Positions 26,890 to 42,466 of a stretch of DNA of 64,000 nucleotides are shown piece after piece (positions within the stretch are counted from its first letter, which is position 1; each line of letters starts with the position of its first letter). Position numbers and translations under genes: made by a program. The stretch covers positions 12,896,001-12,960,000 of the forward strand of contig OZ024751.1 in the NCBI GenBank assembly GCA_964016885.1. Reading direction: 5' to 3'. The DNA comes from Eledone cirrhosa. Its lineage: Eukaryota. The notes beneath the pieces are model-generated. The model saw nothing but the letters and a program-made list of their open reading frames with translations, ran no database searches and was not told the origin of the DNA.

Positions 26890-27122
26890 GGAGTATTTCC
26901 GTAGGAAAGGTAAAGGAAAAGAGAGTGCTCTATGTAGGCTACAGAGCTTTTTAGTTATGTAATAAACAACATAAGATAATTAATTCATTTACCACTGGTT
27001 TCTTGAAGACAGATATTTATATCTGTCTGTCTTCAGTCGCCAGAAGACAGATATAAATAGCTGTCTTCAAGAAACCACTGGTAAATGAATTAATTATCTT
27101 ATGTTGTTTATTACATAACTAA
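26890..27122 (-). mobile_element. Hammerhead element, family G, with fold-back
   Basis: Minus strand: CTGAAGA-cagacagatat/atatctgtct..-GAAACC-agt-GGTA. Inverted arms about 26951-27025 / 27043-27122; tail gagcactctcttttcctttacc. Confidence 0.75.
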
Positions 27123-27665
27123 ATATATATATTGAGGGAGATGGAAAGCACCGGGTTTTATTGCTAGCTAACCCCATACATCACACACTAACTCCTCAGG
27201 ACATGTAATGAACGCCACTACACACCGCCTTTTACCTCATATTGTCTTCAAACGAACGTGTCGCCCATCGATGGATACATTCAATCGCAGTTCATCAACC
27301 TGAAAATATTTACTTATATGATGCCCGTGATTTTGTTGTTGTTTAACCCATGGTCACTACACGTCTTATAGACCACTTGATCAAAGACATACTAACCATG
27401 ACCATTCCGTTGATTTAGGTAGGTTGTATAGCAATCTATGTTTAATACGTTCTCTCTTTAAGTGTAGGTAAAGTGATATTAGAGAAAATTTTCGCAGCTG
27501 TTTCTAGCATGTCGAATGACCACCTAGAGGCTCGTTACACGTGTATTTAATATAATATCTATATTTTACTATGTGTATATGTGACGTGTGTGTGCTAATG
27601 TGTGTGTGTTTTCGTGTATATATTTGTAAGTTTATAGAAAACATATATAGGACTATATATACACG

Positions 27666-27708
<43 letters not shown>

Positions 27709-27709
27709 A

Positions 27710-27796
<87 letters not shown>

Positions 27797-28486
27797 GAAC
27801 TGGCTTCTATACAGTTGTAAACTTTATGAGGTACGAACAATCATACACAAAATATATATGTACATACATGCATTCAAACACACACACGTGTTTGTGTGTG
27901 TATTTGTATATATACGGCAGGCTTCCGCGTAGTTCCCGTTTACAAGGTATTTGTTCATCCGAGTCTACTTTAGAAGACAACTTGTCCAAAATGGTTCACA
28001 GTGAGATCGAACACGGAGCCAGATGACTGCGAAACGAACCCTTTAACGACACAACGTATGTCTGTACACATATACATATACACACACACACTCTCTCTCA
28101 CATGCACACACACATCACGTATACATACATTCACACACATACACACACATTGACATTCTCACACGTACACACATCTTTATATACATATATATAACAATCT
28201 GTTTATATGTGTACATATGTATTTGTAAGTATATTTGTATATGTTTATATATGCGTAATCATATGTGTATCTGTGGATGGCTGTGTATGTAATATATATG
28301 CATGTGAGTGTATGTATATATGTGTGAGTGCCTGTGTATGTATATATATGTATGTGTGTGTACATGTATTTGTTAGTATATCTGTGTATATGTTTATGCG
28401 TGTACTGTACATATGTGCATCTGTAGGTGGCTGTGTATGTGAGTGTATATATATATATATATGTGTATGCCTTTGCGTTTTAAAAC

Positions 28487-28536
<50 letters not shown>

Positions 28537-29889
28537 ATGACTATCAGTAATTGTATATCTGTCTATGCATGTATGTGGGTGCGTGTCTGTATTTCTGTGT
28601 TTGTGTCTGTCGTCTGTGTGTATGTTTGTGTTTATACGTGACTGTGTTCGTGTAAACGTGTGTATGTGTATATATATATATATGCATAAGCCCGTGTGTG
28701 TGTGCATGTGTATATATATATGCATAAGCCCGTGTGCGTGTTTATATGCATAAGCCCGTGTGTGTGTGTGTGTGTATGTATATATATATATACGTGTATA
28801 TACATACGTGTGTATGTACAGCTGTGTGTATGTGTATATATGCATAAGCCCGTGTGTGTGTATATATATATATATATATAATATATACATACATGTGTGT
28901 GTACAGCTGTGTATATTTGTGTATGTGTGTTCGTCTGCGTCTGTATTTATAAGCATGTTTCAGTGAGTGTTTGTGTGTATGTGTGTTGTGTTGTGTTGTG
29001 TATGTATGTGAGTATGTATGCGTGTTGTGTACGTAAGAGTTTGTGTATGTATGAGTGATTTGTTGTGATGTTGTATATGGGTTTATGTGCAATGTTTGTG
29101 TTGTGTAAATTTGTGTGTGTGTGTGTGTGTATACGCGTTCCGATGTGCGTATATGTGTGAACGTATATCTGTATATGCGTTTATATATGGGAGTGTGTAT
29201 GTGTGAACGTGAATATGTAATGTATATGCGTTTATATATATGTGTGTGTATATGTGTGAACGTGAATCTTTATATGCGTTTATATATATGTGAGTGTGTG
29301 TATATGTGTGAACGTGAATCTTTATATGCGTTTATATATATATGTGTGTGTGTGTGTATATGTGTGATCGTAAACATGTATACGTGTGTATATATGTGAG
29401 AACGTGAATTTGTATACGTATATACACATGTGTGTGTATATGTGCATAAGTCTGTATATGTGCGTGTATATATATGGACATCGATCTATATATGCGTGTA
29501 TATATGAATGAATGAAAATCTGTATAAGCGAATATATGTGAGTGTGTATGTGTGCAGACGTAAATCTCTATGTGTGTATATATGTGCGTGTGTATATGTG
29601 CATGTGTATAGGTGTGTATATGTGTGAACGTAAATCTGTATACGAGTATATATATGTGAGTGTGTATATATATATGTATACGCGCGTGTGTATATGTGTG
29701 AACGTAAATGTCTATATACTTTTTTATATGTGAGTGTGTATGTATGAACATGAATCTATATAAGCGTATATATATATGTGTGAATAAGTATCTGTATAAT
29801 GTGTATATATGTGAGTGTGTACGTGTGAATATCAATCTAGATATGCATGTATATATGTGAATATGTATTTGTGTATGTGTATATATGTG

Positions 29890-30420
29890 CATATGTACGT
29901 GTGTATATGTACGTATGTATATGTACGTATGTATATGTACGTGTGTATATGTACGTGTGCATATGTACGTGTGCATATGTACGTGTGTATATGTACGTGT
30001 GTATATGTACGTGTGTATATGTACGTGTGTATATGTACGTGTGTATATGTACGTGTGTATATGTACGTGTGTATATGTACGTGTGCATATGTACGTGTGT
30101 ATATGTACGTGTGCATATGTACGTGTGCATATGTACGTGTGCATATGTACGTGTGTATATGTGCGTGTGTATATGTGCGTGTGTATAAGTACTTGTGCAT
30201 ATGTACGTGTGTATATATGCGTGTGTATATGCCAATGTGTATATGTGCGTGTGTATATGTACGTGTGTATATGTACGTGTGCATATGTACGTGTGCATAT
30301 GTACGTGTGCATATGTACGTGTGTATATGTGCGTGTGTATATGTGCGTGTGTATAAGTACTTGTGCATATGTACGTGTGTATATATGCGTGTGTATATGC
30401 CAATGTGTATATGTGCGTGT
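29890..30420. repeat. 16-bp minisatellite atatgtacgtgtgY
   Basis: Tandem gtatatgtacgtgt / gcatatgtacgtgt units. Confidence 0.85.
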
Positions 30421-30739
30421 GTATTTGTGTGCATATAAGTGAGTGTGCACGTGTATGTGTGTATGTGTGTGTGTGGTACAATAGTTATTCCAGTAGGTTG
30501 TGTCAGTCAGGGCAGGAGCCATGACACGCCCTACGGACCTTCATCTCGAGGTTGTAAAGAGGCGTACTTAGAGCTGACACCATCCCCCTTCTCTCACTCA
30601 CTCTCTGTCTCTCTCTTCCTCACTCTCTCCTCCTCACCTCTGTCCTCCCTCCTTCTCATCCTCTGTATCAATTTTCTATTGTATTATACGGTGGTTAGCT
30701 TACCGACTGTTCTGGCTGACTGGGTGGTTAGGTGACTAG

Positions 30740-41526: not shown

Positions 41527-41558
<32 letters not shown>

Positions 41559-41565
41559 TTTTTTT

Positions 41566-41666
41566 ATAGAAGTAGCTTCTACAGGACTAGTACTGTTTCA
41601 TTCAGATGAAATCTTCGAAGATTTCATCTTACTTACTGTGGTTATCCCCGACTCAACCCGGAACCT
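41566..41666. mobile_element. Rearranged family A element
   Basis: Minus-strand stem III region, then the palindrome agatgaaatcttcgaagatttcatct, then the family tail on the plus strand. Confidence 0.65.
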
Positions 41667-41738
41667 ACGTATATATATATATATATATATATATTTACGA
41701 TATTAACAAATGGAAACTATATTTATAAAACCATATTG

Positions 41739-41801
41739 ATTTCAATATACATATTTCAAGGACACCAAGTTAAATTATGGTGTGCTTTCATCAGATAAAA
41801 T
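41739..41801 (-). ncRNA. Minimal hammerhead motif (family F/H related)
   Basis: Minus strand: attttat-CTGATGA-aagcacacca/tggtgtcctt-GAA-atatgtat-A-ttgaaat. Confidence 0.7.
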
Positions 41802-41850
41802 ATAATATAGAGCAGTTTTATAAATAAATATTGACATACCCTTAAATAAT

Positions 41851-42032
41851 TGTTTCTACTTTAGGCACAAGGCCAGCAATTACTCAGTTCATTACTGGTA
41901 CTTTATTTTATCGGCCCCGTAAGGATGAAGGGCAAAGTTAACCTCGGTGGGATTTGAACTCAGATCGTAAAGGGACGTAACTATACTGGAAAGCATGGCG
42001 TCCGACCCTCTACCGATACTGCCAATCCACCG
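41851..42032 (-). mobile_element. SINE family 1 with a 12-bp TSD
   Basis: cccttaaataat at 41839-41850 and 42033-42044. Confidence 0.9.
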
Positions 42033-42317
42033 CCCTTAAATAATGCAACCGTAACTGTTGGAAGCTCCCGGATAGTCTAATATATATATATATATTAGAA
42101 AGTGAGGTATTTTTTTTACAAAATGAAAAATAACCGAGGTGTCCTACACGAGTGAAAGTATAAAGAAAAAAAGATGAAATCGAAAATGCAACTGGAGTCT
42201 TATTTTAAAAAATATATATATATTTATTTGGTTCCTTTACCGGTTTCGCAGTTCTTCTGCTTTTCAAAAGTAGAGTTGGGATGGAGGGTCTCTGGTTTTT
42301 CTCACATATATATATAT

Positions 42318-42460
42318 GAGGTATTTCCGTAGGAAAGGTAAAGGAAAAGAGAGTGCTCTATGTAGGTTACAGAGCTTTTTAGTTATGTAATAAACAGCAT
42401 AAGATAATTATTTAATTTACCACTGGTAAATGAAATAATTATCTTATGTTGTTTATTACA

Positions 42461-42466
<6 letters not shown>
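42318..42466 (-). mobile_element. Family G element folded back at hammerhead stem III
   Basis: Arms 42380-42466 centred on tttaccactggtaaa; tail nearly identical to 26890-26950. Confidence 0.78.

Follow-up and report, generated by a model that had tools for sequence, protein, structure and literature searches.

EN+ Penelope-like elements (PLEs) are described as head-to-head insertions into AT-rich targets, with an inverted, 5'-truncated copy at the 5' end, a tail at one end only, and a palindromic junction (PMC3846280, PMC8557442). How PLEs construct these inverted ends and tails is still an open question. The Hydra clade, whose membership is defined by the reverse transcriptase (RT), combines a (TA)n target with a type I hammerhead ribozyme near the 3' end, features that are not exclusive to it (PMC8557442). 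Minimal PLE hammerheads have a long helix II with an unpaired base at its 5' end and a short helix III, and in Schistosoma they form opposite-strand pairs 100–700 bp apart (PMC4209133). For PAc, a Poseidon element of Anolis, it has been found in vitro that the protein cuts and extends both strands of AT-rich DNA, that two internal RT start sites delimit the tail, and that ribozyme cleavage is not needed; PAc belongs to another clade, and the available text of that report does not model inverted insertions or their junctions (PMC11167929). Another precedent is the twin priming of L1: each target end gives rise to a cDNA, one by poly(A) priming and the other by internal priming, and the two are annealed at a short complementarity (PMC2912911).

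Here we describe two copies of a short hammerhead-bearing element, family G, in a 64,000-nucleotide stretch of DNA from Eledone cirrhosa (the window). The inverted truncated copy, the one-sided tail, the (TA)n target, the junction palindromes, and the opposite-strand hammerhead pairs are all published features, and two such loci are by themselves an ordinary finding. What does offer a simple genomic test between self-priming and two-ended priming is the polarity of the unduplicated centre, which here leans towards two cDNAs. We put the probability that the insertions were built from two cDNAs with two-ended priming, and not from one folded-back strand, at roughly 60%. A literature search that covered few subscription papers returned no paper applying twin priming to PLE inversions. 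Turns fixed at stems II and III or at the cleavage site would, if true, implicate the hammerhead in integration, a conclusion that the family G evidence does not carry.

Results

Anatomy of the two copies

Both copies are genuine head-to-head inversions inserted in (TA)n, with 103 of 107 nt matching between them. On the plus strand, each runs from an antisense 62-nt tail through the antisense hammerhead region to a turn, and from there returns in sense to ACATAACTA and (TA)n. The mirror arm ends at ...ACATAACTA in copy 1 and copy 2 alike, the match extending 2 nt more in copy 1, and the tail is present once in each of the two, in agreement with the initial annotation, which had described an unduplicated tail of roughly 60 nt. 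With (TA)n on both flanks, a target-site duplication is unreadable at either copy. Positions within the ribozyme are counted from the cut site, H17 being −1 at 26990 and 27083. The features are as follows.

26890–27123: copy 1, whole, with arms 26951–27045 and 27043–27123
26890–26951, minus strand: copy 1 unduplicated 62-nt 3' tail; a 7-bp hairpin begins about 5 nt past the tail-less end point
26952–27045, minus strand: copy 1 tailed arm, comprising linker, stem I 3' strand, GUA site (H17 at 26990), stem III, GAAA, stem II with a private 4-nt duplication, core, and 2 nt of the stem I 5' strand
27030–27036, minus strand: CUGAAGA, consisting of one unpaired C and the 5' strand of the 9-bp stem II; pairs with CUGUCUUCA
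27037–27043, minus strand: true catalytic core, CUGGCGA in copy 1 with the conserved A6 changed, CUGACGA or CUGAUGA in the family
27043–27045, no strand: copy 1 junction, a 3-nt microhomology (GAA) common to both arms, read against the family upstream sequence
27043–27123, plus strand: copy 1 tail-less mirror arm, lacking a core; it extends from stem II up to the fixed end, beyond which is (TA)n
42318–42466: copy 2, whole, with arms 42380–42422 and 42419–42466
42318–42379, minus strand: copy 2 unduplicated 62-nt tail, the same as the commonest family tail end
42380–42422, minus strand: copy 2 tailed arm, ending within stem III
42419–42422, no strand: copy 2 junction, a 4-nt microhomology (ACCA); loop base 42423 has the orientation of the tail-less arm
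42419–42466, plus strand: copy 2 tail-less mirror arm; it extends from stem III up to the fixed end, beyond which is (TA)n
57949–58112, plus strand: relative of family G sharing 75% identity over 116 nt; its hammerhead core is complete, and its inverted partner lies at 58565–58726

The copies are likely the truncated 3' ends of a PLE, and the parent element likely belongs to the Hydra clade; as that clade is defined by RT and family G is known here from its non-coding ends, both assignments are made on non-coding features. Of these, the inverted 5'-truncated copy at the 5' end is present in both G copies, and the (TA)n target and hammerhead type are those described for Hydra (PMC8557442). Compared by eye, Hydra-2_Ajap has the same CUGACGA core and a motif similar to the GCUCUG...CAUAGAGCACUCU that follows the cut site by about 40 nt, whereas stems I–III of Hydra-1_Obim are unlike those of family G (PMC8557442). 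Differences from the EN+ PLEs of PMC3846280 and PMC8557442 are a published tail of 30–40 nt against 62 nt here, G arms that are shorter than 100 nt and ORF-less, and the lack of a readable duplication within (TA)n. None of the 156 ORFs listed in the window encodes the RT or GIY-YIG endonuclease of a parent PLE. A non-LTR retrozyme consists of tandem units, each with a hammerhead, and no tandem hammerhead units occur in the G copies of the window.

The hammerhead region

The terminal repeat of family G has a predicted hammerhead, made up of core, stem II, GAAA, stem III, GUA, and stem I. The core lies 7 nt further 5' than the CUGAAGA motif from which the initial annotation had read the turn of copy 1: the CUGAUGA of the relative, at 57955, aligns with 27043–27037, and contigs crossing this position read CUGACGA or CUGAUGA (at least 21 X1, 25 X2, and 19 X3 contigs), with the strand preceding this motif pairing with the bases after GUA to form stem I. 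CUGAAGA was considered as an alternative core and rejected, as it would leave four unpaired bases before GAAA and no stem I is possible 5' of it. The inversion of copy 1 is as annotated, but the landmark is a stem II strand and the turn falls on the core itself. The tailed arm crosses the core and stops 2 nt into stem I (−52), and the mirror arm resumes in stem II (−41), the two sharing 3 nt. The 4-nt duplication in stem II of copy 1 is missing from six X2 and seven X3 contigs.

The arms of copy 2 meet in stem III, where they have 4 nt in common, and the turn, 5 nt 5' of GUA, lies where it was originally placed. The 6-bp hairpin tttacc-act-ggtaaa credited with this turn is largely a product of the inversion: its outer pairs arise from the mirror itself, and the template has only ACC and GGT, whose ACC-loop-GGT does not fold alone (0 kcal/mol).

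Neither copy retains a complete ribozyme with an intact CUGANGA core and helices I–III, in which they differ from the minimal PLE hammerheads; the tailed arm of copy 1 has CUGGCGA, and the other three arms are without a core. Rfam reports no hammerhead at gathering level over the window, nor at E up to 10 over copy 1. The miRNA matches that Rfam does report merely mirror the palindrome.

Fixed outer ends and the tail

Evidence on family G beyond the window comes from other public runs, namely contigs of X1, X2, X3, and X4 and RAD reads of X9 and X10. In all, 2221 X1 contigs were placed on the family, and the counts of loose ends and joints given below are for the best-supported ones among those listed. 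The tail end against (AT)n appears as loose ends in at least 86 X1 contigs and in at least 548 X9 and 497 X10 reads. The corresponding figures for the tail-less end against (AT)n are at least 15 contigs and at least 240 and 220 reads, the reads probably representing few RAD loci. Measured against the mirror arm, the tail-less ends fall into two modes separated by 3 nt, 27118 and 27121, with at least 11 and 12 X2 contigs and at least 12 and 10 X3 contigs, respectively. Copies 1 and 2 both use the second mode. The identical stop point that was annotated for the two copies therefore applies to both of them but not to the family as a whole.

The tail-less end lies about 5 nt before the 7-bp tail hairpin, which in copy 1 has a fold z of −2.2. 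Sequence resemblance suggests that this hairpin may be shared across families, although the corresponding fold lacks significance in H and I (z 0.8 and −0.1). A metagenome scan with the tail motif gave no matches. The suggestion that the arm end marks a fixed boundary between the pLTR and the tail is supported: the ends recur in contigs and reads, and two RT starts flank the tail of PAc (PMC11167929).

Position of the turn in family G

When contigs are aligned to the whole palindrome, those listed give six further junctions from other G copies, with partner ends that scatter over about 60 nt. Four are +14/+14, +11/+16, −5/+14, and −1/+15, the last carrying two filler bases; +12/stem II and core/+18 come from sister subfamilies. 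At 26979–27099, a 3-nt match encloses a 5-nt loop, and this joint recurs, at a depth of 47; the joint at 26976–27097 has a symmetric, loop-less centre, and that at 26990–27098 is the one ending at −1 with two filler bases. Every one of the six has one arm of 22–28 nt. A hot spot at +11 to +18 was nevertheless rejected, and the short arms were taken as a detection bias, because arms below the assembly word reach unique flank; the shortest listed side is 22 nt.

The proposal that turns are enriched at stems II and III is not supported for family G. The 8–10-bp pairing of stem II is used by none of eight junctions (the two copies and the six listed contig joints). At the stem III loop, the family base makes up 92% of X1 depth, 364 of 409 X9 reads, and 382 of 405 X10 reads, and the loop base expected from a turn in stem III accounts for at most 36 of 78,448 summed X1 depth; as contigs drop rare variants, this low value argues against a hot spot without proving rarity. 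Since 36 of the 73 positions in the mirrored region, or half of it, lie within 3 nt of a landmark, the two landmark matches of the window copies are themselves weak evidence.

Two other sources of junction data were set aside. The X9 and X10 read ends pile up at AATT sites (26978–26985), so that these runs look double-digested and blind to fold-back centres, and their single joint (26980–27011, four reads) was dropped, as it sits at such a site. A fall in contig depth across stem II was rejected as a truncation profile, being mostly due to divergent subfamilies.

Centre polarity and microhomology across families

The window holds 13 two-armed hammerhead copies: two of family G, five of H, four of I, and two of J. 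The tail is on one arm in 12 of them, H 41565 being rearranged. Families G, I, and J have a fixed end to the tail-less arm; in family H this end shifts by about 10 nt, and in H 4650 the arm stops short of it. The centre could be assigned in 10 of the 13 copies. It derives from the tail-less arm in five (G2, H 37690, H 44088, I 12436, and I 22106), forms a symmetric, loop-less palindrome in two (H 4650 and J 62307), and derives from the tailed arm in three (G1, J 45190, and, weakly, I 60001). Seven of the 10 therefore cannot be a simple snap-back of the tailed cDNA. Copy 2 is one of these, as its loop has the orientation of the tail-less arm.

Microhomology at the junctions sums to 25 nt over 15 junctions, compared with 11.6 nt expected for random end pairs (p ~0.016). 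The sum leaves out I 60001, J 45190, H 35850, and H 41565, the value for I 42770 is ambiguous, and the values for H, I, and J were read from alignments. By subset, the excess is not significant for the six contig joints (p 0.21–0.26), and is borderline for G (p 0.04–0.06) and for the other families (p 0.057). Filler bases are present at one contig joint and at I 22106. Of the idea that hairpins set the turns, what stands is short self-complementarity, 3 and 4 nt in the two window copies, and not hot spots at stems II and III.

Discussion

The observed ends and junctions are most readily explained by two cDNAs. In such a scheme, the endonuclease of the element would cut both strands of the (TA)n target, and reverse transcription of the same kind of RNA would be primed from both DNA ends, starting at the tail end for one and 62 nt further in, just before the small hairpin, for the other. 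Two start sites would give two fixed outer ends and a one-sided tail. Both cDNAs would stop early and, since both are antisense, could pair only where the RNA is self-complementary; they would then be joined at 1–4 nt of inverted microhomology, sometimes with filler. The ribozyme helices might supply some of the matches, and perhaps pauses, but would not fix the turn, and self-cleavage would not be required. Unlike in L1, both primings would lie near the 3' end and copy the same stretch, giving a mirror.

A two-cDNA origin explains why the ends are fixed and the turn is not, and it accommodates the short microhomologies, the filler bases, and a centre of either polarity. In its favor are the fixed ends, both seen against (TA)n in contigs and reads, the cutting and extension of both strands by PAc with two internal starts flanking the tail (PMC11167929), the seven of 10 centres that are not simple snap-backs, the excess of microhomology, and the fillers. 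Against it, none of the ORFs listed in the window is that of a parent element; the polarity of five versus three is also compatible with a full hairpin that had one of its tails randomly trimmed; J 45190 has a 15-nt true snap-back followed by a second jump; the rare loop base with which copy 2 would be a simple snap-back is present in the tailed arm of copy 1; the microhomology excess is borderline or not significant in subsets; and X1 contigs with the tail end outnumber those with the tail-less end (100 versus 15), although the tail is common to more subfamilies.

It is conceivable, though we hold it only tentatively, that the ribozyme sets the turn, either because its folded form halts RT at the 5' edge or because the template RNA starts at that edge. 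The longer arm stops within 10 nt of the first base of the core in five of nine two-armed G, H, and J copies, both arms of the relative at 57949 and 58726 start about 5 nt before the core, and all four copies of family I turn in the 3' half of the presumed stem II, without the core. However, this tally is post hoc, the copies having been found by palindrome and hammerhead searches, and the ribozyme occupies most of a short arm. The partner ends of the G contig joints, moreover, scatter (+14, +11, −1, −5, stem II, and core), and G2, H 35850, J 45190, and H 41565 are exceptions. What survives is a weaker tendency towards the ribozyme edge. A ribozyme-linked stop, itself possible but rather unlikely, would be compatible with either two-ended priming or self-priming. 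The combined proposal, that the inversions record double target-primed reverse transcription from starts 62 nt apart, the inner one ahead of a conserved hairpin, with the hammerhead serving as stop and annealing site, not as a cutter, and the longer arm ending preferentially at its 5' edge, is a doubtful one.

Self-priming, in which one cDNA (or an antisense template) folds on a hairpin and is copied back, with the endonuclease trimming one tail, appears unlikely. It corresponds to the hairpin part of the initial annotation's proposal, it is how junction palindromes are read in PMC3846280, and the tail is ascribed to EN-mediated resolution in PMC8557442. In copy 1, the centre is that of the tailed arm, and a small stem closing a 4-nt loop could form there; a short snap-back is seen in J 45190; the recurrent joint at 26979–27099 has its 3-nt match and 5-nt loop; and self-priming with later trimming also permits mixed centre polarity. 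Yet the loop-less centres (H 4650, J 62307, and the joint at 26976–27097) and the filler bases are not hairpin products, and stem II, the strongest hairpin, is passed over at all eight G junctions, contig joints being among those listed. Neither window copy has as its junction hairpin the fold favored by the template, and the in vitro work shows priming from both strands and use of both start sites (PMC11167929).

Self-cleavage, one arm being copied from the 3' cleavage product and so ending at the GUA site, had also been offered as the cause of the turn points, and is improbable. The joint at 26990–27098 ends at −1 with its two filler bases, and the tailed arm of copy 2 could end at −1 if all of the microhomology is assigned to the other arm, but both cases are one base longer than a cleaved template permits. 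All 16 arm matches for G, H, and I extend beyond the cut site in the 5' direction, in a search that missed some diverged arms. Cleavage is dispensable in vitro, and the available text reports no RNA reads of the anole element ending at the site (PMC11167929), and minimal PLE hammerheads cleave poorly (PMC4209133).

Finally, it is highly improbable that the palindromes come from misassembly or from DNA-level rearrangement of single insertions after they had integrated: (TA)n palindromes are hard to assemble and no contig examined spans either whole copy, but an independent 160-nt contig (X4 record 9, depth 2) has both arms and the rare alleles of copy 1 around a centre 8 nt shorter, which makes an artefact unlikely for the layout of copy 1, the arms differ at several sites, and the tail asymmetry recurs in four families.

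The reading of the copies as Hydra-like ends built from two cDNAs also draws on the resemblance of tail motif and spacing to Hydra-2_Ajap (PMC8557442) and on a minor allele (~6% of X1 depth) common to both arms of copy 1, which points to one source for the two arms.

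Fold-backs of families I and J

Family I, one of the head-to-head fold-back families, is represented by four fold-backs:

12436-12610, family I fold-back
22086-22250, family I fold-back
42765-42948, family I fold-back
60001-60205, family I fold-back

All four turn in the presumed stem II and have an identical tail-less end, and their stem III is long and palindromic. The hammerhead core is absent from every one of these fold-backs, an absence that could reflect either a template that always starts at one point or a strong stop. The family J fold-back (45190-45614), which carries two intact hammerheads, has its turn some 70 nt 5' of the core, with a 15-nt snap-back followed by a second jump.

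Family G and its relative

A large inverted repeat (57731-58944) has its arms arranged tail-to-tail with the heads outward, each arm containing (TA)n, a relative of family G, a stretch of (CA)n(TA)n, and another 70 nt of sequence. The two copies of the relative differ at 1 position in 162 nt, and both start about 5 nt before the core. The two-cDNA model, in which reverse transcription starts once at each target DNA end and the cDNAs are joined at a short microhomology, leaves this repeat unexplained when applied to a single element.

Within family G copy 1, the tailed and mirror arms differ at three places within 35 nt (26995-27027): in the tailed arm, one loop base is what inverting the stem III loop would give, another change makes the stem II hairpin perfect, and 4 nt are duplicated. 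All three differences may be hairpin-templated mutations. Sister subfamilies of family G have stem III and the 3' region in common and differ in their stem II sequences, as seen where contigs from public runs break off from the reference (27061, 27066, and 27069).

Other palindromes and repeats

A hammerhead-bearing element whose core lies at 56919 carries at its 5' end a perfect, loop-less 124-bp palindrome (56651-56774), the short arm of which comes from inside the element rather than from its 3' end. Another, head-to-head palindrome (55124-55589) probably represents a tRNA-derived repeat and its inverted partner; the two tRNA-like heads are divergent:

55291-55361, tRNA-like head, Rfam tRNA match
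55363-55433, tRNA-like head, Rfam tRNA match

An exon-like ORF (5463-5978, minus strand) encodes a nuclear-receptor zinc finger, which we take to resemble that of COUP-TF/seven-up. Finally, a dispersed 190-bp repeat, likely a SINE, is present in about ten copies (85-96% identity), including:

36778-36969, 190-bp repeat
41846-42034, 190-bp repeat
55733-55920, 190-bp repeat
61362-61550, 190-bp repeat
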